Source: a virus. Taken from it: a stretch of 64,000 bases of DNA. The notes below the pieces were generated by a model. That model saw only the letters and a program-made list of their open reading frames with translations. It did not search any database and had not been told where the DNA came from. Location: the IMG/VR virus record IMGVR_UViG_3300028558_000001, positions 32,001-96,000 of that record; one strand, 5' to 3'. Below, in pieces: positions 14,626-32,468 of the stretch (position 1 is its first letter; each line of letters opens with the position of its first letter). Position numbers and translations under genes: made by a program.

Positions 14626-17192
14626 ATGAAAGTTGGTGATCGTGTCAAGCTGATCCGTGATGGCGGATATGATGATGTAGATGAAGGCGCAGAAGGTACG
14701 CTTGTCGAGATTGATGAGAACCAATACGCGAAGCCTTTCAATTATATGGTTGAGTTTGATTGTCAGAAGAACCTTGACCCGTTCCCCTGTATGAAGAATG
14801 AAATCAAGCTGGTTAAGGAAGGGAAGGCTATCAAGCCAGATCATTCTGCTTCTGCTTATGTTAAAGCAATGAATGATGTTCTCAATATGCTCAATAAGCA
14901 AGACAGAACTAATACTTCTGTTAATGCTGTTCTGTTTGATCTTGAATCAGAAATCACTGGCCTGATTCGTGAAGCCAAGAAGTGGGGCTAATCATGGCAC
15001 AGTCAATCGGTAAACATAAGATTCTTTGTGTTACTCCAAACATAACAATTTGGTCCAATCCAACTACCATTTACCAACGTAAGAACGGTACTTATTATGT
15101 GAATTGGGACAAACGTGTTACTATCACAAAAGAAAAAGATCACTTTCTTTTTTCCCCTAAGTATGGAATTAAACAAGGATATTATAATGAATAAGTTTAA
15201 AGTTAAGGATCGTGTCAAGCTGATTGTTAATTATGGTAGTGATGACTACCTTAAGAAGGGTACAGAAGGGGAGGTTACAGACAACAGTGCTTCCACTATG
15301 TACCCTTATCGTGTCAGGTTTAAGGACATGACTACTTCTATTCTTTGTGCAGAAGAGGAACTTGAATTGGTGAAGGCTAACGTCAATATTCCTTATATTG
15401 ACAATGTTATTGCTCATCTAGAAAATGAAGCTAAGCAGCTTGAGATTGGCGCGGCTTATGGCGGTTCATGGGGAGACGGCGGCGCATCTGAAATCCGCAA
15501 GGCTATCTATTATTACAAATGTGGTATGAATGGAACTATCCCTGTGAAGTGGGTGCCACTCCATGATCATTTTGTTAAGGTTGGGATTGATCCTGATTAC
15601 CAGAAATATATGGAACTAAAAGATAAGTATGGAGATTGATATGGCACAAGAAAAGAAAATGGTCGATAGACGAGTAAGGGAATTTGATCCAGATTGTTGT
15701 ACTCTGAAACAAGTCAAGGATGAGATTGAACGTCTAATCAAAGATTATGGTTATGATGCTATGATTAAGGAATATGAGGATGATTACTCTGATCATCGGT
15801 ATCTTGGTATCTATATCAAAGAACTAGAAACTGATAAAGAGTTTAATACTCGTCTTCTTCAAGAAGAACAATATAAGGCAAGACAAGAACAACGTGATCG
15901 TGAGACTTTTGAACGTCTCAAGAAACAATTTGAACAGAAAGGAAAATGATTATGGATAATGATACAGAACAGAAGGTTCGGAGCAAGGTACTGAACATTG
16001 TTACGTTTGGTACTTGTATCGCAGGATTTGTCTTAGGGGCTTGGCTTGGTTGGTTTGGGATTTTTCTCTCATTACTTTTCGGACTAGCTATTGGAACGTT
16101 TATTTCTCTTGTTCCTATCTCTGACTCATGTAAGTTTATTGAAGATAAGGAACCTCTAATTCCAGAGATTACTTTTAGTGGTTTTGGTTACAAGACTTCT
16201 ATTGGAGCGATTTATCTTACTCAGCCAAACCAGCCACAAGAAGGCGGTCGGAGAGGCTTCTATATTGAAGCTGTTCGGGATGATAAGCGTCAGGAAAAGA
16301 GAATGTATATTTCTAGGGAAGCTATGTTCCGCCTAATGGAAATATATCTCTATTCTTTTAATGAAGAAGATCGTAAATTTGAAACAGTGGAGAATGATTA
16401 ATGTTTATTATTGTTGATGTTAGTTCAGAAGAATTTATTTGTTCTGCTGATACTCTTGAAGACTTACAGAAGACCTTCAATGATCTTGTTGTTTGTGGAG
16501 ACTATGACGATCCATACTCAACATTTAGTATCTTTGAACAGAAGTTTGATATTAGGATCGCCAGAACTGCTACTTATATTCCTACCGCCGAAAGCGTAGA
16601 AGCCCTAATTACCAAGAAGAGGAAGTGAAATGTCTGAGATTGCAAGCCGAATTGAAATTGAAATTCCCGTCATTACTAAGGAAACTAGAATCCAGTTAAC
16701 CTTGACTGAGCGACAGGCCGAAGTTCTAAAGGCCATTCTTGGTTCTGTTACTGGTCCATCTAGTGGCCCGCGCGGTCAGACCGACGCTATTTACTATTCC
16801 CTAGAGAAACTTAATATTGGGCCAGTGGGACTATACAAGGATATTGTTATTGATGGTAATATGTCATTAAAGGGAAGCAAATGAAATTTGTTATCACAAT
16901 TAATTATTCAATTGAATGGGTTGGTTCATGGACGGAATATGTTCCCGTTGAATATGAATCCATTGAAGCTTTATATATTGATTTAAATACATCAATTGTA
17001 GCAGCAAAGAGACTACAGAATCAGTATTGGTTAGAGGATTGGAGCACTCGCGGTAAGGCTCCACCAGATACAATTACTTTTGCTGGAAAGAAATTTGATT
17101 TAGATTGGTTTGAATGGGATGATCCAGAGCCAATTCGTGAATATGAGATTAATACTCTGGATCATTGGTTTGATAATACTTACTTGGGCTGA
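14626..17192 (+). other. Run of hypothetical ORFs (14626-14991, ~14994-15194, 15188-15639, 15641-15949, 15946-16401 membrane protein, 16401-16628, 16630-16884, 16881-17192)
   Basis: Packed ORFs with overlapping start/stop codons; two begin with an SH3/KOW-like KVxDRVKLI motif. Confidence 0.65.
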
Positions 17193-17671
17193 TTATACTT
17201 GTCGCAATCATCTTTCTTATCGGAATAGATATTGCAATAAGTTTTGATCCAGTCTTTAGAAATCTGTTCCTGCGCCTGTTCCTTGGTAATGATACCGTCA
17301 CAGATCATTCTATGTAACTTGTTTTCAAGTTTATCTTTGACGTGAGCATTCCAAGGCATGGTCGTATAAGACTGAGGCCATAGATTTGTAATATCATTCT
17401 TTCCACCAATCTCTAGTGAGATTAGATGATCAATTTCAAATTTATCTGCTTTGGGATCAATAGAATATTCTGCAAATACTTTCTTCTTGGTTGAAGCAGA
17501 GACATTTCTAACAGAACCAGTATAGCCAGCTAGGCATAGCTGTTCATTGGTGACGGCAGTATCAATAACTCCCGGCGTTAGATTATGATCTGGAAGGATA
17601 GGAAAATCCTTGGCTGCTACTGGTGATACAAATAGTAATGAAAGCAATAACGCGGATAAAAATTTTGTCAT
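17180..17671 (-). CDS. Exported HNH-fold protein with signal peptide
   Basis: MTKFLSALLLSLLFVSPVAA^K; EIDHLISLEIGG..NLWPQ..KDKLENKLH; agagga RBS. Confidence 0.8.
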   Translation of the reverse strand: MTKFLSALLLSLLFVSPVAAKDFPILPDHNLTPGVIDTAVTNEQLCLAGYTGSVRNVSASTKKKVFAEYSIDPKADKFEIDHLISLEIGGKNDITNLWPQSYTTMPWNAHVKDKLENKLHRMICDGIITKEQAQEQISKDWIKTYCNIYSDKKDDCDKYNQPK

Positions 17672-17702
17672 AATTCCTCTTGACTTTGAAATGGGCATGT
17701 AG

Positions 17703-17954: not shown

Positions 17955-18458
17955 ATGAGAACAACTGACACACATGTATTTTTTTGGGGATCATTCTTAT
18001 CTAACTTTTATTATGCCCCATTTGATGTAGCATTTGAAGGTGAAACACTTCATTTTAAATCTTCTGAGCAAGCCTATATGGCTTCAAAAGCTCTGTTCTT
18101 TGGTGATAGCGCGGCCTTTAGGAAGATTCTAGACGCCTTCGATGCTAGAGAAGCCAAGGCCATTGGGCGAACTGTAAACAATTTCGATGCTATCGCATGG
18201 GATGAAGTCTCATATGAAGCGATGTTTTCAGCCTGTGTCGCCAAGTTCGCCAACAATATCATCATCCGCGAAAAGCTTATTGAGACTGGCGATCTAATTC
18301 TTGTGGAAGCAAGTCCCCTAGATTGCATCTGGGGTGTTGGCCTTCATGAAGATGATGATCTAATTCTTAATGAAAAGAACTGGAAAGGCGAGAACCGCCT
18401 AGGGAAGGTTCTTATGGAAGTCCGTTCATTTATGAAAGAAAGTTTTCCCAATGAGTGA
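17955..18458 (+). CDS. NADAR family ADP-ribosylhydrolase (YbiA/T4 gp30.3-like)
   Basis: FLSNFY, SSEQAYMASKA, AKAIGR, LVEASPLDCIWGVG, GENRLGKVLMEVR. Confidence 0.92.
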   Translation: MRTTDTHVFFWGSFLSNFYYAPFDVAFEGETLHFKSSEQAYMASKALFFGDSAAFRKILDAFDAREAKAIGRTVNNFDAIAWDEVSYEAMFSACVAKFANNIIIREKLIETGDLILVEASPLDCIWGVGLHEDDDLILNEKNWKGENRLGKVLMEVRSFMKESFPNE

Positions 18459-18625: not shown

Positions 18626-19707
18626 ATGGCAGTTCGAATTGGTAAGTATATTTCATTTGATGATGAAAGTCGTTCTGAGACTACTACGTTTAGTCCAACG
18701 ATTGGTAAGGAAATACTGGTTTCTTTTAAGGATAATGATGGAGAAACAGGTTCACGAATTATCTTGAGGAAAGACATTCCTAAGTTAATTACTTATTTAC
18801 AGGATTTTGTGGATGATTACTCATGAAGTTAAATGTTAATATTGATCATACCTGTACTTATTCAAAACGTTCTAAGGAAGCTTATGGAGATTGGCGAAGT
18901 GACTACTCTAATGATTTAGAGTCAGTTACTATTTCAGAAGATGGTTATGGAGAACCAATTGACTTTGAAGTTGAAAATGGTGAAGAAGTCTTTGTGGTTT
19001 GGGCTGAGTATTCTACTGGTGACTCTTTCGGGCGTTCTTCTGGCTCTTTTGATGTTGTTACCGTCTACAAGAGTGAAGACAAAGCTAATAAAGCTGCTAA
19101 GATTTTAACTAGTCCTGTATCTGATGGTAAAGATTATTATGAGTCATGGACAGTTGAATTAACTACAGAAGGCGGTAGCCTTCTAAAGTATAATCGTCCT
19201 TGGATGGGATACTTTGAACATTTAGAAGGGGTTAATGTAACCCCTGCTATCATTGGTTCTGGAAGAAAGGGACGGAGATATGTCTGATTTTAAAGTTGGT
19301 GATAAGGTAACGATGTATGGCTACCACCCTGTTGCAAATGACCTTGATGAAGCTTACAATGGTGAAGTAGGAACAATTGTTGATATTGGTTCATACATTG
19401 AAGTTCAATTTGAAGTAGAAATTGATGGATTAGATAATTATCTTCTATTTGCAAATGAAATTGAATTAATTGAACCTTTTGAATTTAAGGAGGCACTTTA
19501 ATGTCTAAGAAAATTGAATTTGATTTAACTGGTCTTGAAGTTTTAAAGATCATGAATTTTTTTAATAAGTGTAATATCGACACTGATACTGTTTGTGTTT
19601 CTGTTGATATTAATGCGTCAGATAATACTTATGTCTGGCCCATGATTTTTACTGAGATTGCGACTGGCAAAGCAGTAGATGTTACTGATTACCGGGAGGA
19701 AGTTTAA
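18626..19707 (+). other. Four hypothetical ORFs (18626-18826, 18823-19287, 19280-19501 SH3-like, 19501-19707)
   Basis: RBS and overlap packing. Confidence 0.65.
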
Positions 19708-20714
19708 TGAAGCACTTATCATTTCCATCTATTGAACAGTTTCGTAATGTAGTAAAGTCTGTTTCTGATCGTACATATCATAATGGACATGTTCGTAAGC
19801 CAGTCATTATGTTTCGTGGTACTGTAAAGAGTCATGGAACCAATGCATCTATTGTATATGATCGAGAAGAGAATGTATTCTATGCTCAATCTCGTTCCAA
19901 TGTTCTTTCCCTAACTTCTGATAATGCTGGTTTCTGTCAGTATTTTGAGACTAATAGGGAATTTTTTGAGACGTGGTTAAGAAACACTGTGTCGGATGGG
20001 GAACGCTATTACTCTATCTATGGTGAATGGTGTGGTGGAAACATTCAGAAGGGTGTTGCTATCTCAGGTCTTCCTAAGATGTTTCTTATTTTCGCTCTTA
20101 GACTATCTAATTTAGATGAGGATAACAATCCAGTTTCTAACTGGTATTTTGATAATCTTGAAGTCCCAAAGAATGAAATTGGTTGTTATTCAATCGCTTC
20201 ATTTGGAACCTATGAGATTGCCATTGACTTTAACAATCCTGAACTATCTCAGAATCAGTTAGTAGAGTGGACAGAAGGTGTAGAAGAAGTCTGTCCAATT
20301 GGTAAGTTCTTTGGTAATGAAGGTGTTGGTGAAGGAATCGTTTATCATCCAGTGAGTGCCGATATTCCTAATTTTCATCTTTCAGAACTATTTTTCAAGG
20401 TAAAGGGTGAAAAGCACTCTGTTTCAAAGGTGAAGACCCTTGCGGCAGTTGACGTAGAAGTTATTAATTCTATTAATGAATTAGTTGCCTCTCTTGCTAC
20501 TGACAATCGCTTTAACCAAGGAATTCAGGTTCTAACGGAACGTGGCATTGACGTAAATGACTCCAAGAACACCAGAGACTTTATTACATGGGTCAAGGAC
20601 GATGTTATCAAGGAAGATCGGGATACAATCCTTGTTTCTGGCCTTGACTTCGGCAAGGTAATTGGTAATATCACGTCAATGGCCGGTAAGTGGTTTAATA
20701 GTCGGCCAATTTGA
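19707..20714 (+). CDS. RNA ligase, Rnl2 family
   Basis: Motif I TVKSHGTN, AQSR, YGEWCG, EGIV, FKVK. Confidence 0.88.
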   Translation: MKHLSFPSIEQFRNVVKSVSDRTYHNGHVRKPVIMFRGTVKSHGTNASIVYDREENVFYAQSRSNVLSLTSDNAGFCQYFETNREFFETWLRNTVSDGERYYSIYGEWCGGNIQKGVAISGLPKMFLIFALRLSNLDEDNNPVSNWYFDNLEVPKNEIGCYSIASFGTYEIAIDFNNPELSQNQLVEWTEGVEEVCPIGKFFGNEGVGEGIVYHPVSADIPNFHLSELFFKVKGEKHSVSKVKTLAAVDVEVINSINELVASLATDNRFNQGIQVLTERGIDVNDSKNTRDFITWVKDDVIKEDRDTILVSGLDFGKVIGNITSMAGKWFNSRPI

Positions 20715-20738: not shown

Positions 20739-21446
20739 ATGTCAAGTTACCATGAGTTAAAGAACGCTGCATTTATCACCGTTCTAAACAGTTATCTAAA
20801 TCTACATAACGTTCCTTCTGATATTGCCCTAATCATTAATGAATATATCATTGCTGATAAGATCAATTTCAAGCCACATGCTCACAATCCTTATTCTGTA
20901 GAAGATGGTCTTGGTATCATCGAGCAATTTTCTGGTCCAGTTGATGTTGCTGATCCAGTTTATGTTGAATATGTCAACACTCTACGGACTTCAATCAACT
21001 CTCTTGCTTCAATCATTAAGGTACTCAATCGGTATATTAATGATTGTGAGTTTAATAAGTGGATTGAACTTAATGCCAATATTGACTCTCCATACCGCCA
21101 TAACTTTCATAAGTTAATTGCAGCAGTTCGCCATGATCTTGTTTTTGATTATAATGAACTAATTGCTCTGCGTGTTTACTGGAAGGGTATGTATAAGGCT
21201 GTCCGTTCATACAATCAGAGTAATCTATCCCCATCAACAGTACATTAAGGGGAGCTTATAATAATGAATAAGAATAAGCTCACCAAGGAAGTATTTGAGG
21301 AAATTTTAGAAGTCGCTATTGATGCTTTTGGTTTCTCCTATGTTTGGGATACTATTAAGGATTTCAATAGAGAACTAAATTTTGATGATGATTGTTTAAC
21401 CGATCCTGATGAGGATTTCTATTGGACAGGAGAAGAGGATGAGTGA
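20739..21446 (+). other. Two hypothetical ORFs (20739-21248, 21264-21446 acidic)
   Basis: RBS motifs. Confidence 0.6.
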
Positions 21447-21804
21447 ATATACTACTAAAGATTTATCTGAACTAGTTTCCAAGATTAATTCAGATGTTGA
21501 ACTTGCCATTAAGATTTCTAATGAAGTTAGGACAGGTTTCGCTATTCGATACTCAGGAACTTGGTACGTTCCTGAGACAAGTCGTCTAACATATGAGGAA
21601 GTCCTAGAAGGCATTGAAAAGAATGCCTTTAGGGATGAATTACTTCCTTCTCTGTGTGAGGCACTAGATAACTATAAAAGGTTAGTAGAGACGTATGGTG
21701 AATCATATGTTTTCCATATTGATGATGATCATTGCTTTGTAGAAGAAGACTATGGTTATGACGGACAGTATACGGGTTGGCTAAATTCATCATCTAATTG
21801 TTAA
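21439..21804 (+). CDS. W-x-x-S-x-x-x-C motif protein 1
   Basis: Ends GWLNSSSNC*. Confidence 0.8.
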   Translation: MSEYTTKDLSELVSKINSDVELAIKISNEVRTGFAIRYSGTWYVPETSRLTYEEVLEGIEKNAFRDELLPSLCEALDNYKRLVETYGESYVFHIDDDHCFVEEDYGYDGQYTGWLNSSSNC

Positions 21805-21829
21805 TAATTATCAAGAAAGGATTTATATT

Positions 21830-22198
21830 ATGAGTTATACTAATGAAGATTTAGACTCGGCTGTTAAGGAAATCTATGCGGCAGTAGCAAAGGCAGAAAC
21901 GATTTCAGAGGAACTTCGTGAGGGGTTTACTCTTGAGATTGCCTATGGTATGGGTGGCTGGTACGTTCCCAAGTCATCACGCCTTGATTATGAAACCATT
22001 CTGGCTAAGATCGAGGAAAATAGCTTTTCTGATGATGATCTAGAACTTGTCAAGGAACTTCTAGAGGAATATGCGGAAATGAAGGAAAAGAATCCAACCC
22101 GTAACTATGTGTTTGACTTAGAAGAAGGCGTACTATATCGTAAGTCTTTATATGAGGATGATTCGACTGGTTGGCGTTCATCTTCTTCCTCTTGCTGA
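21830..22198 (+). CDS. W-x-x-S-x-x-x-C motif protein 2
   Basis: IAYGMGGWYVP; ends GWRSSSSSC*. Confidence 0.85.
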   Translation: MSYTNEDLDSAVKEIYAAVAKAETISEELREGFTLEIAYGMGGWYVPKSSRLDYETILAKIEENSFSDDDLELVKELLEEYAEMKEKNPTRNYVFDLEEGVLYRKSLYEDDSTGWRSSSSSC

Positions 22199-22211
22199 AA
22201 AAGGTTTAATA

Positions 22212-22466
22212 ATGAGTGATCTGTTAACTTTCAAAGAGATTATTGATATTATTGCATCTTCTGATGATGTTTCTTCGGAAGATCGCCTTAAGATCAAGAC
22301 CCTTCTTAATCTTTATTATGATAAGAAGCGTTTTTATGAAACCGATTACAAGTTTGATATTGTTAATTGGAAGCTAGTTCCTGTTGATAAGTATGAATCC
22401 ACTTGGGATTCATCTTCTTGTTCTGGTTATGACGAAGATTGGAGTTCTTCTGATGCTGAATGTTGA
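22212..22466 (+). CDS. W-x-x-S-x-x-x-C motif protein 3 (two motif copies)
   Basis: TWDSSSCSGYDEDWSSSDAEC*. Confidence 0.8.
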   Translation: MSDLLTFKEIIDIIASSDDVSSEDRLKIKTLLNLYYDKKRFYETDYKFDIVNWKLVPVDKYESTWDSSSCSGYDEDWSSSDAEC

Positions 22467-22812
22467 ACAGGCAAAGGATGCCCTAGATAAGGCAGTTAAA
22501 GATTTACAGGACGCCTCTGATCGCGAGGGCGTACCAGTTAGATATGTCTTTGGTGACTCAGATTATGGTGGCTTCACATATGTTCCTGATTCACTAAATC
22601 TTCTCACATTTGATCAGGTACTTGAAGCTATTGAATATGAGAAGTTCTCATCATATGAGCTTTCAACTGTTTCTCGTCTTATTAAAGAATATAACGAGAA
22701 GACTAAGAATAGCAAGTATGCTAAATTTAAGTTCAATCTAACTAAAGGAACACTTGACGAATCAGAATATGATGATACTGGTCGTTGGTATTCCTCATCA
22801 GAACGTTGTTAA
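22453..22812 (+). CDS. W-x-x-S-x-x-x-C motif protein 4
   Basis: ggag RBS; YGGFTYVP; ends RWYSSSERC*. Confidence 0.8.
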   Translation: MLNVEQAKDALDKAVKDLQDASDREGVPVRYVFGDSDYGGFTYVPDSLNLLTFDQVLEAIEYEKFSSYELSTVSRLIKEYNEKTKNSKYAKFKFNLTKGTLDESEYDDTGRWYSSSERC

Positions 22813-22824
22813 GGAGAAATTGTT

Positions 22825-23142
22825 ATGAAGCCTATTTCATTTTCTGAGTTATTAGATAAGATCACTGAGGGAGAGATTTCCAAGGAACAGATGGTGGCTA
22901 TCCGTCCACTCATTGATGATTATATGAGGATGAATACTTCTGTTACATCTGAGATTAAGTTTGTTCTAGAAACAAACCAACTATATTTAGATCAGTATTC
23001 AGAAAATCCTTATATGGATGACTGGATGGCTTCAACTGCAAGTTGTTCTGGTTATGAAACCGTTTATAATTATGACAAGTGGGCCAATCAGCGTATTGAT
23101 CCTGAATGGGGTGAGAAAGAGTTTTATCGCTTCGATGATTGA
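22825..23142 (+). CDS. W-x-x-S-x-x-x-C motif protein 5 (motif internal)
   Basis: DWMASTASCSGYE followed by an extension. Confidence 0.75.
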   Translation: MKPISFSELLDKITEGEISKEQMVAIRPLIDDYMRMNTSVTSEIKFVLETNQLYLDQYSENPYMDDWMASTASCSGYETVYNYDKWANQRIDPEWGEKEFYRFDD

Positions 23143-23223
23143 TCCTAATGTTGGTTGTATCCTATTAGGATTAGTAATTATAAGCATCTATCTGTACGTA
23201 ACTACTAGATAAAGGAATATAAG

Positions 23224-24132
23224 ATGATTCTGACTGGTTCTCATGCACTTGCCAAATATATTGATATTGGTCGTGAACCCAAGGACATTGATTATCTTTG
23301 CTCATATGATGAATATGAAGCCTTCGTTTATTTTAATGAAAGCAAGATTGTTCATAAAGGCGATACCAAGTTTGGGCATTTCGTTATCATGCTCGGCTCC
23401 AAGCCAATTGAGTTTGATATTGCTGAGAAGTCAGAATCATCTAAAATTCTTTATGATGCATATAAGGGAAGGGAAGCACTTCCTCTCCATGTTCTATATG
23501 CCATGAAAATGTCTCATCGTTATCTTAGGAATTCTCCTCATTTTCTCAAGACGATGAACGACATTATTCTTATGCGTGATGAAGGAGCAGGAATTACCTC
23601 AAAAATGGCTGAGTGGATTAAGCTCCGTGAGAAGGAAACTTATGTTTACAAGCATCCTGACCTTACCGTTGATAAGGTGAACTTCTTTGTGGATAATTTC
23701 TATAAATTTGATCATGACGACGTTCATGAAGCTATCAAGGTAGGCGATGCTCCTGCTTATCAGGCTATCAAGATTCCCGGAGAAGATGTGAAGTGTTCCA
23801 AGGAACTATTTGATGCCCTTCCATATGAGAAGAAGCTTCTTTGCACCTATGAAGAGTCTTGCGTCCTTGCACTAGAGCGCCACCAGATTCCAAATAACTA
23901 CAATCCTGATCCTCTCAAGTCTTTCCAGATTGCTCTACAGAAGGTTTGTTCTTCTATTACTTCTGGATGGTTTCGTGAATGGTCATGGGAAAATTACTAT
24001 CAGGTACTTGACTTCTATGCTCAGAAAGGGCATAATGACTATGTTGATCGTCTCAGGAAGGCAGATGATGAAGGTCGTCTACGTCTTTGGGATGACGTTA
24101 AGCAAAAACTAATGAATAATAAAGCAGCTTAA
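23224..24132 (+). CDS. Pol-beta-superfamily nucleotidyltransferase-like protein
   Basis: ILTGSHAL...KDIDY...IEFD (GS, DxD, third acid) plus a C-terminal domain with DHDDVHE. Confidence 0.75.
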   Translation: MILTGSHALAKYIDIGREPKDIDYLCSYDEYEAFVYFNESKIVHKGDTKFGHFVIMLGSKPIEFDIAEKSESSKILYDAYKGREALPLHVLYAMKMSHRYLRNSPHFLKTMNDIILMRDEGAGITSKMAEWIKLREKETYVYKHPDLTVDKVNFFVDNFYKFDHDDVHEAIKVGDAPAYQAIKIPGEDVKCSKELFDALPYEKKLLCTYEESCVLALERHQIPNNYNPDPLKSFQIALQKVCSSITSGWFREWSWENYYQVLDFYAQKGHNDYVDRLRKADDEGRLRLWDDVKQKLMNNKAA

Positions 24133-24133
24133 T

Positions 24134-25132
24134 ATGAAAGGAAATTCCCTCTTGGTTGATATTAACCTAAATTATAATGATTCTCTATATTCGTCTGTAG
24201 AAGGTAAGTTTGTTTTAAAGCATTTACATGAGAATGTAGATATTGTTTGTGAAGAATTTGATTCTTCCAATACTCTACAGGAAATCATGGCGATTACCAA
24301 ACAAGTTATCAAAAATATTGTCATCATCCAACATTCTGTTCATACTGTTTATATGTTATCTGATAACTATCATATCCGTATGTTTAAGAATAATAAGATT
24401 GTTTCCCTATCCGTTAAAGGTTCACAAAAGAACGTTGACTATTTTAAGGGAATCATTAATGTAGCAGAAGAAGAACCTGTTGTGCATTGGTTCCATAAGG
24501 AAGGTTCCTCTTTCGCTCAGGAGAGCTTTCCTCTCAAGAATAACAATATGCCTATTGATGAAATGTATCCATTCATCAAGGATGGATTGACAGATTATTA
24601 TGATAGATATATGAAGTCTTCTGCATCTATCCTCCTACTCATTGGTCCTCCCGGCTGTGGTAAGACAACATTCCTTCGTGGTCTTCTCCATTATACCTCA
24701 TCTGATTCTATGATGACTTATGATGAACTTCTACTACAGGATGACCACTTCTTCATTCGGTTCATTAAGTCAGATGATCTATTCCTAATTATCGAAGATG
24801 CTGATACAATGATTAGACCAAGAGACGAAGGTAATAAGCTAGTTGCTCGTTTCCTAAACCTATCAGATGGTATCATGGATATTCAGAACAAGAAAATCGT
24901 TTTCACAACCAATCTTGATTCTCTTGCTAATGTCGATCCAGCACTTACCCGCGAAGGCCGTTGTTTTGATGTTCTTCACTTCCGTCATCTTAATTTTGAT
25001 GAGGCAACAAAACTAGCAGATAAGTGTGAGATTGATTTCAATCCAGCAAGACGCTCTGATGAGTTTCCAGTATCAGAAGTCTTTAATAACAAGCGCAACA
25101 ATGATCGCAAAACAAAGTTAGGATTCTTTTAA
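24134..25132 (+). CDS. AAA+ ATPase
   Basis: GPPGCGKT, IIEDAD, FTTN, DPALTREGRCFD. Confidence 0.9.
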   Translation: MKGNSLLVDINLNYNDSLYSSVEGKFVLKHLHENVDIVCEEFDSSNTLQEIMAITKQVIKNIVIIQHSVHTVYMLSDNYHIRMFKNNKIVSLSVKGSQKNVDYFKGIINVAEEEPVVHWFHKEGSSFAQESFPLKNNNMPIDEMYPFIKDGLTDYYDRYMKSSASILLLIGPPGCGKTTFLRGLLHYTSSDSMMTYDELLLQDDHFFIRFIKSDDLFLIIEDADTMIRPRDEGNKLVARFLNLSDGIMDIQNKKIVFTTNLDSLANVDPALTREGRCFDVLHFRHLNFDEATKLADKCEIDFNPARRSDEFPVSEVFNNKRNNDRKTKLGFF

Positions 25133-31970: not shown

Positions 31971-32468
31971 TTAATGATGAGCACATAATTGGAAATGCAT
32001 TGGATCAATATCATTGTTTGCACCGCGCCAACAAAATCCATGCTTCTGTAGAATTGTAGCAAACTTCTCATCAATCATCTGTCCACCAGTATACTTATGA
32101 GGGAATGGATTATGTTGTGGGTCCATATCAATAGCACATCCCCATGAATGTACTGATAGACGTGAACCGCCGCGTTCAAGGCGATAACAGAAGGTTCCAC
32201 CAGTAATATTGAGTCTCTTGGCAACAATGTAATCATGACCAAGTGTATTAAGTACGTCAGTAAAAGCAGCGTCGAATGTCTCTAGTGTCTTTTTATGAAC
32301 TTCTAGATGTAACATCGCTTCTTTTGGATTGCCAGAATAGAACATTGGATATGGAGTAACCCAATGTGTCATGTTTTCGGCATACCACTTTGGATCAACG
32401 TTGCCGTTTCTTCCTCTTGGATTGCCATAAAAAGCATCTAGTTCAACAATATTTTCTTTAGGCCACAT
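31971..32468 (-). CDS. M15-family peptidoglycan peptidase (probable endolysin)
   Basis: R..SVHSWGCAID...DPMHFQ Zn motif; AATAAATA at 32499-32506 upstream. Confidence 0.85.
   Translation of the reverse strand: MWPKENIVELDAFYGNPRGRNGNVDPKWYAENMTHWVTPYPMFYSGNPKEAMLHLEVHKKTLETFDAAFTDVLNTLGHDYIVAKRLNITGGTFCYRLERGGSRLSVHSWGCAIDMDPQHNPFPHKYTGGQMIDEKFATILQKHGFCWRGANNDIDPMHFQLCAHH

Follow-up and report, generated by a model that had tools for sequence, protein, structure and literature searches.

We describe a phage enzyme-partner system found in a 64,000-nucleotide stretch of viral DNA (positions 32,001 to 96,000 of IMG/VR record IMGVR_UViG_3300028558_000001; hereafter the window), in which a two-domain nucleotidyltransferase-like enzyme is encoded downstream of five small acidic proteins that carry the motif W-x-x-S-x-x-x-C. 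Homologues of the enzyme in other phages are likewise accompanied by small partner proteins, which are built on two unrelated scaffolds, one Cys-tailed and one Cys-free. Across hundreds of phages the enzyme is nearly always accompanied by arrays of small proteins, and as their single constant is a serine, the enzyme probably marks that serine chemically. As far as we could find the system is undescribed; a literature search, with most subscription papers outside its reach, returned no description of either the enzyme family or the pairing.

Pairing of the enzyme with Cys-tailed proteins

The pairing of the enzyme with Cys-tailed proteins is real, and is seen at 91 loci (clade 1 of the enzyme family), where the enzyme is flanked by one to six small acidic open reading frames (ORFs) with the terminal motif, which we refer to as type-1 partners. 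We defined lineages as enzyme clusters with less than 65% identity to each other, and counted motif ORFs within 3 kb and on the same strand as the enzyme, with ORFs farther off or on the opposite strand as controls; 74 motif ORFs are present in 38/45 enzyme lineages, versus 0/1,729 control ORFs. A count made blind to the motif finds a terminal Cys in 186 of the 538 acidic enzyme neighbours; W-x-x-S is present in 176 of those 186. The initial annotation, made from the letters of the window, had suggested that motif genes and nucleotidyltransferase form a unit conserved in unrelated phages, and this homologue search and neighbour motif scan across phage genomes bears it out. In the reciprocal direction, true motif ORFs found by a DNA-pattern search are mostly accompanied by the enzyme within their own locus or contig; all four of the further genomes searched that are at least 90% complete carry it, and two records, both incomplete, have a motif ORF that looks real but no enzyme that could be found.

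In the canonical type-1 partner a helix leads into a YGMGG hairpin, followed by an acidic, variable linker and finally the tail. Within the tail the W and S+3 are in fixed register, S+4 is present in 92% of the C+7 class, and the Cys lies at +5, +7 or +8, being the terminal residue in about 96% of clade-1 tails. The same tag ends many unrelated bodies, which form 24 clusters, and W-x-x-S is also repeated within partners about four times more often than expected (53 observed versus 13 expected), with 31 of these 53 internal copies having no nearby Cys.

RB69-like phages have both enzyme and partners, in RB69 itself ORF134c with ORF136c/137c, and neither was seen in T4. Among relatives of Enterobacter phage CC31 the partners appear to be eroding, there being two, one damaged, or none, and the CC31-like enzymes (loci L026, L031, L038 and L040) carry F in place of H106 and H in place of D113, two positions that are conserved elsewhere. 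One lineage (L030/L052) that we had considered partner-less has its partners about 6 kb away on the opposite strand, and what looked like a type-1 partner fused N-terminally (P0190) is an artefact of gene calling with TAG read as Q, with the stop at residue 77. Type-1 homologues in NC_018855.1 and MT150133.1 are annotated as 'tail completion protein', which is probably a misannotation. A 'gp205' label on one homologue raised a link to ICP1 Oad1, which we reject on the description of Oad1 as a protein of about 22 kDa, tagged, without homologues outside ICP1 (PMC12392090).

The five small proteins of the window

The five small ORFs of the window are paralogues, as initially annotated, with BLAST links of E 1e-5 to 1e-23, and all are on the plus strand. 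ORF1 (21439..21804; 121 residues, net charge -14) is linked to its paralogues by BLAST and has a weak match to phrog_899; it has a helix plus hairpin module, a lineage-specific insert and a terminal W-x-x-S-x-x-x-C (codons 21778-21804). ORF2 (21830..22198; 122 residues, net charge -15) has the canonical helix and YGMGG hairpin, an insert and a terminal motif at 22172-22198; it matches phrog_899 with E 6e-9, the match extending to the final profile column, and when it is aligned with 43 other partner sequences the W, S and C are the sole invariant columns. ORF3 (22212..22466; 84 residues), recognized by its motifs, consists of the insert only and has an internal C+5 copy (22404-22421) as well as a terminal C+7 copy (22440-22466), and both spacings, as well as internal repeats, are common among relatives. 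ORF4 (22453..22812; 119 residues) ends with the motif at 22786-22812 and has an orthologue (E 1e-16) in the closest relative of this locus, L268; we correct its start to the ATG at 22453, which lies inside the 3' end of ORF3 and is preceded by GGAG. ORF5 (22825..23142; 105 residues), identified by BLAST and by motif, has the insert and an internal motif (23023-23046) followed by 31 further residues. The proteins are acidic, with net charges from -7 to -15, and the insert of 50-65 residues is lineage-specific and is present in L268 too.

The helix plus GxxYVP module is common to three paralogues, ORF1, ORF2 and ORF4, and the five tails and the internal ORF3 copy read as originally reported, with W0, S+3 and C+7 kept in five of the six copies and the Cys being the last residue in ORF1-4. 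A core with an L[TD][YF] pattern had also been described for all five; the paralogy stands, and ORF5 fits the pattern only loosely. In the tail part of a five-way alignment W, S+3 and C alone are invariant, and no gene outside this cluster has the terminal motif anywhere in the genome. Because the motif Ser is encoded by all six Ser codons, constraint acts on the protein, and these mixed codons rule out that the tail is explained at the level of DNA.

A second enzyme clade with Cys-free partners

Distant homologues of the enzyme (clade 2, phrog_6944) are present in phages of Gordonia, Streptomyces, Vibrio and Alteromonas. They retain the nucleotidyltransferase motifs and the H-D-x-x-H, EE and ER residues of the C-terminal domain, and the position of C242 is mostly Ile, Val or Ala. 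None of the neighbours at clade-2 loci is Cys-tailed, and 64 of the 66 loci, representing 35/35 lineages, have instead another small protein in one to five tandem copies (type-2 partner; phrog_18295/8206/13591). Its conserved segment is G-[YW]-x-x-S-[YWFH]-x-G, with the Ser about 25 residues from the end; this Ser is the sole 100% column in 127 type-2 sequences, and only 4/127 have a Cys near it. Profile comparison shows no relationship between the type-2 and type-1 scaffolds (hhalign 0.2%), and a type-2 profile, seeded from seven clade-2 neighbours, matches one ORF at clade-1 loci, 5 kb away. At 11 loci in seven lineages, including the cultured phage PT11-V22, the type-2 partner is fused to the C-terminus of the enzyme. 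Because clade 2 has an unrelated, Cys-free scaffold with an invariant Ser, the constant of the family as read from these alignments is the Ser rather than the Cys.

In a quick tree of the enzymes the partner switch falls on one split. We therefore do not claim covariation of the partner Cys with enzyme C242, given this single split and the exceptions L160 and L261. These two loci (L160 being phage DSS3_PM1) combine a Cys at position 242 or beside it with a Cys-free type-2 partner, and both are on long branches. An assignment of the type-2 partner as Tad3-like (ESM score 0.81) was set aside, with no Pfam confirmation for any of 49 members.

The enzyme and its two domains

The enzyme belongs to the Pol-beta nucleotidyltransferase superfamily (the MenT/ANT(2'')/LnuA group) and to DUF7275. 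Its Pfam matches are DUF7275 and DUF7277 (with scores of 229 and 41 bits where the cut-off is 27), both of unknown function, and it matches phrog_2141 (E 2e-91), also of unknown function; a sequence search of the PDB gave no match for the enzyme or for either partner type. The nucleotidyltransferase domain comprises residues 1-140 (23224..23643, plus strand), as delimited by Pfam, PHROGs, conservation and an AlphaFold2 model with a predicted local distance difference test (pLDDT) score of 97. By fold comparison (VIA) the best matches of residues 1-140 are MenT1 (Z 10.7), ANT(2'') (9.6), MenT3 (9.2), MenT4 (9.0) and LnuA (8.8), with root-mean-square deviations of 2.9-3.5 Å over 113-136 residues. 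ANT(2'') and LnuA nucleotidylate hydroxyls. The motif residues are G5-S6, D21-x-D23, E63, K95-x-S-H98-R and K109...D113, and G5, S6, D21, D23, E63, K95, H98 and K109 are conserved at 99-100% across homologues. The Pol-beta fold with GS..DxD..E and an added DHDDVHE, proposed in the initial annotation, is thus present, the latter corresponding to H164-D165-x-x-H168.

MenT1 can phosphorylate a Thr or Ser hydroxyl in cis; T39 of MenT1 is auto-phosphorylated, and S78 of MenT3 is at the equivalent position (PMC11375011). In the window enzyme this position, two residues before the DxD, is Pro19, and across the enzymes it is Pro in 121/229 and 46/60, and Ser or Thr in 28/229 and 4/60. The Ser-kinase activity that had been invoked as a precedent among Pol-beta/MNT enzymes needs a correction: the MenA-type activity is an auto-phosphorylation of the toxin (PMC11375011) at a site that is a Pro here.

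The C-terminal domain (residues 138-302; 23635..24132, plus strand), delimited by conservation and by a separate AlphaFold model, folds on its own as a confident helical domain (pLDDT 93). Its invariant residues in both clades are H164-D165-x-x-H168, E210-E211 and E218-R219, to which clade 1 adds C242, kept in 89/90 loci; the His/Asp/Glu cluster is a putative second, metal-dependent site. A fold search against the PDB gave no solved match above Z 4.2; weak matches to transglycosylases were judged to reflect generic helices, and a single HD-fold protein appeared, at a weak Z of 2.9. Against viral structures the significant matches are to its own family alone, including two giant-virus proteins; in these proteins, of Sylvanvirus and Satyrvirus (BFVD A0A3G5AJ90 and A0A3G5AE53), the DUF7275 domain is part of a larger architecture of 508-571 residues.

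A proposed role for the constant serine

We propose that the phage genes form a module of two parts, a 'writer plus clients', in which the DUF7277/DUF7275 enzyme would act on small acidic partners. The observed fold and residues suggest that the enzyme binds a magnesium-nucleoside triphosphate in a site of the MenT/ANT(2'') type, and the observed pairing and fusion suggest that it would dock its partners through their aromatic-x-x-Ser element. A nucleotide-derived group would then be moved to the Ser, most likely a nucleoside monophosphate (NMP), possibly extended, or else a phosphate, and the Ser of the partner could stand in, in trans, for the cis acceptor that has been lost to Pro in the enzyme family. 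The putative metal site of the C-terminal domain would probably then process the Ser adduct further, for example by removal, transfer or elimination, by analogy with GlnD, and in clade 1 the tail Cys may play an accessory part, perhaps by tethering the partner to C242 or by binding metal. More acceptor sites would be supplied by the tandem gene copies and by the repetition of W-x-x-S within a protein; these arrays and repeats suggest a stoichiometric role in host conflict, with the partners acting as a covalent nucleotide sink or as modified decoys, which is the least supported step of the scheme. By analogy with the phage protein Gad2, a counter-defence role of the module is plausible. Covalent modification of the partner Ser by the enzyme is the reading towards which we lean, with modest confidence. 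We favour Ser modification over thioether formation or C-terminal activation because the Ser, not the Cys, is the family constant; the idea that the motif is a substrate or tag of the enzyme thus stays in place with Ser modification as its leading form, and the other two chemistries are weakened.

There are precedents for such an arrangement. GlnD is a Pol-beta nucleotidyltransferase with an HD domain that places an NMP onto a Tyr of the small partner PII, which its second, metal-dependent domain removes, and in the type VII toxin-antitoxin system MNT-HEPN a Pol-beta enzyme puts an NMP on a hydroxyl of a dedicated partner. The proposed writer and dedicated acceptor resemble these, as judged from the invariant Ser and the fusions, and the phage enzyme may work like GlnD-PII or MNT-HEPN. 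The systems differ in that the acceptor there is a Tyr in one conserved partner fold, whereas here it would be a Ser on two unrelated scaffolds with arrays of paralogues, and in that the phage C-terminal domain, unlike that of GlnD, has no clear HD-fold match. A more elaborate version, which we put forward tentatively, is that of a phage-wide and hitherto undescribed post-translational pathway with a two-site enzyme that uses Ser-tagged carriers as primers or sinks, giving protein-linked oligonucleotides (serving, for example, as nucleic-acid or tRNA-end decoys), a covalently trapped host signalling nucleotide, or dehydroalanine or thioether products; the C-terminal domain would be a new catalytic fold and the products would neutralise defences.

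Several observations weigh against Ser modification. MenT1, the nearest solved fold, acts on tRNA 3' ends (PMC11375011); an invariant Ser also fits non-covalent pseudo-substrate binding; phage CC31 has an intact-looking enzyme and no detectable partner; and the partner switch rests on one tree split, such that the two clades could differ in chemistry. An Rnl2-family RNA ligase (phrog_548, 19707-20714) lies upstream of the array in the window, with a PHA02142-type ligase at the matching position in L268, and on one contig the enzyme is part of a 630-residue in-frame fusion with PHA02142 and RNA ligase (P0266, L266:5001-6893), with an Nlig-Ia gene downstream and two tagged partners still upstream. 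A prediction of the complex of enzyme, ATP, Zn and ORF2 (median score 0.01, mark 0.32) gave no verdict and was not used.

Most of these points would also fit an enzyme directed at RNA, either a MenT-like host-takeover toxin or an RlaP-like repair enzyme, with the partners acting as non-covalent inhibitors or adaptors whose aromatic-x-x-Ser mimics an RNA 3'-OH, and we consider this unlikely, albeit the alternative that survives best. The folds nearest to the enzyme are those of MenT1, MenT3 and MenT4, and the layout of a small gene upstream of the enzyme resembles MenAT1; the nucleotidyltransferase fold of residues 1-140 is that of these toxins and of AbiEii (DUF1814; PDB 8an4, 6j7n, 6y56; Z 9.0-10.7), and the likeness extends to hG[GS], DxD and the probable Lys and Asp of motifs III/IV. 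The differences are that the phage enzyme has Pro at the auto-phosphorylation position, where MenT1 has T39 and MenT3 has S78, an additional 150-residue domain with its own invariant site, and a phage-borne distribution with arrays of one to six partner genes and partner fusions. Arrays of up to 5-6 genes, repeated motifs and the fusions are hard to fit to a simple antitoxin, the enzyme is net acidic (-6), and neither a match of the enzyme to AbiEii in Pfam, NCBIfam or PADLOC nor a MenA or AbiEi match for 44 + 49 partners was found. RlaP is likewise a phage Pol-beta nucleotidyltransferase that is sometimes near RNA ligases (PMC7824862), and a ligase or polynucleotide kinase does lie near the enzyme in some genomes, but in only about 3/44 and about 3/33 lineages, a weak linkage that contrasts with the tight linkage to Ser-motif proteins; the RlaP Pfam profile does not match the enzyme.

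A second alternative, which we regard as improbable, is a thioether chemistry resembling that of peptides made on the ribosome and then modified post-translationally (RiPPs), in which the N-terminal domain activates the Ser, the C-terminal domain eliminates it to dehydroalanine, and the Cys closes a lanthionine in clade 1 or the electrophile persists in clade 2. Clade 1 does share with the lanthipeptide synthetases (LanB/C, LanM, LanKC, LanL and class V) a conserved, leader-like N-terminal module with a Ser...Cys core and a two-domain enzyme with a second His/Cys site that includes C242, and its tails mostly end in Cys. But the partners of the sister clade lack the Cys although their enzymes keep H-D-x-x-H, EE and ER; the Ser-to-Cys distance varies from +2 to +5, corresponding to a Cys at +5, +7 or +8 from the W; the internal W-x-x-S copies often lack a Cys; and no protease, transporter or tailoring gene recurs beside the enzyme. 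No Pfam match of the enzyme to LanB, LanC, LanM, a kinase or a lyase was found, and none is among the listed fold matches, an absence that is not decisive. The thioether and C-terminal activation proposed initially are weakened as the core chemistry of the family. Taken together, the enzyme fails the tested defining features of the MenAT, lanthipeptide and RlaP systems.

It is very improbable that the enzyme modifies a small molecule, as do ANT(2'') and LnuA, or a host protein in the manner of Gad2, with the partners serving solely as specificity adaptors. The fold matches to ANT(2'') and LnuA and the diverse partner bodies would suit this, and the anti-Gabija protein Gad2, with a predicted nucleotidyltransferase domain, 400 amino acids and 170 homologues, provides an earlier case of a counter-defence protein from phage that resembles a nucleotidyltransferase (10.1101/2023.05.01.538930). 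However, this leaves unexplained why one invariant Ser should recur on two scaffolds that are unrelated, and Gad2, while also an accessory phage nucleotidyltransferase, is by its description a stand-alone protein with no partner array; scans of family libraries, made without a direct pairwise comparison, gave no match of the enzyme to a Gad2-named family. The Emajogi cytotoxic nucleotidyltransferase was set aside as a member of this family by annotation, its homologues being labelled Gad2-like. We give scarcely any credence to a ubiquitin/ThiS-like route, with adenylation of the C-terminal Cys carboxylate, a thioester on C242 and conjugation, since, while most clade-1 partners end in Cys and the enzyme Cys is invariant in that clade, several partners including ORF5 continue past the Cys, the invariant W and S lie at variable distance from the end, and clade 2 has neither Cys and an internal Ser.

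Neighbouring genes and genomic setting

The seven ORFs initially annotated (five small paralogues, nucleotidyltransferase and AAA+ ATPase) were all found in the same orientation; the small ORFs, the 302-residue enzyme and the 332-residue ATPase have ribosome-binding-like sites, and a scan of the locus for promoters and terminators gave no signal above chance level. The AAA+ ATPase (24134..25132, plus strand; phrog_14322) has the Walker A, Walker B and arginine finger expected of it, but it is a co-oriented neighbour rather than a conserved part of the system. A homologue occurs close to the enzyme in 2/44 and 0/33 lineages, at a distance of about 4-5 kb and never adjacent there, and relatives of the ATPase in GenBank belong mainly to Pseudomonas jumbo phages; this rare linkage and these relatives rule it out as a third component. 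In L268 an AAA homologue is one gene apart from the enzyme. Besides the partners, no gene family adjoins the enzyme in more than four lineages.

Upstream of ORF1 is a 169-residue ORF without the tag (20739..21248, plus strand), related (E 8e-15) to a 241-residue protein of L268 (L268:4519-5244) that has W-x-x-S-x-x-x-C at its end, and this alignment suggests that the tail of a former partner may have been lost in the window ORF. An acidic 60-residue ORF 3' of it (21264-21446) terminates in W and acidic residues with no Ser or Cys; the two may be decayed partners. Elsewhere in the window, 17955-18458 encodes a 167-residue protein that is NADAR-like by appearance only and has homologues in L061 and L066, close to the enzyme there; 17180-17698 (minus strand), opposite to its neighbours, encodes a secreted-looking protein of 172 residues in which a DHLI..GG motif is HNH-like.

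The window belongs to a T4-type phage whose genome, from rhizosphere DNA, is complete at 176,660 bp, with a gp23 match and direct terminal repeats; the phage terminase shares about 50% identity with the terminases of Sinorhizobium phages phiN3 and phiM12. The window DNA lies within one contig of the probable source run, and near-identical pieces are present in two other rhizosphere runs.

Distribution and significance

The enzyme is present in 734/50,697 GenBank phage records, and a search with a profile of the C-terminal domain yields 1,552 clusters at 50% identity. It is found in RB69-, JS98- and phi92-like coliphages and in phages of Acinetobacter, Vibrio, Streptomyces and Gordonia, and is nearly confined to phages; outside these there are three plasmid records and seven contigs of metagenome-assembled genomes. 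At one locus (L027:5700-6750) the enzyme is split into frames of 55 and 209 residues, by a frameshift or an assembly error, and is whole in the relatives L030 and L032; one incomplete jumbo-phage record (L072, G012) has two enzyme copies, with no partner beside the copy examined.

If the Ser is indeed modified, a writer that acts on small proteins of diverse kinds through a portable Ser tag would constitute a new phage protein-modification pathway. It would also give a function to a helical domain that has no solved match, and might possibly provide a tool for site-specific labelling.

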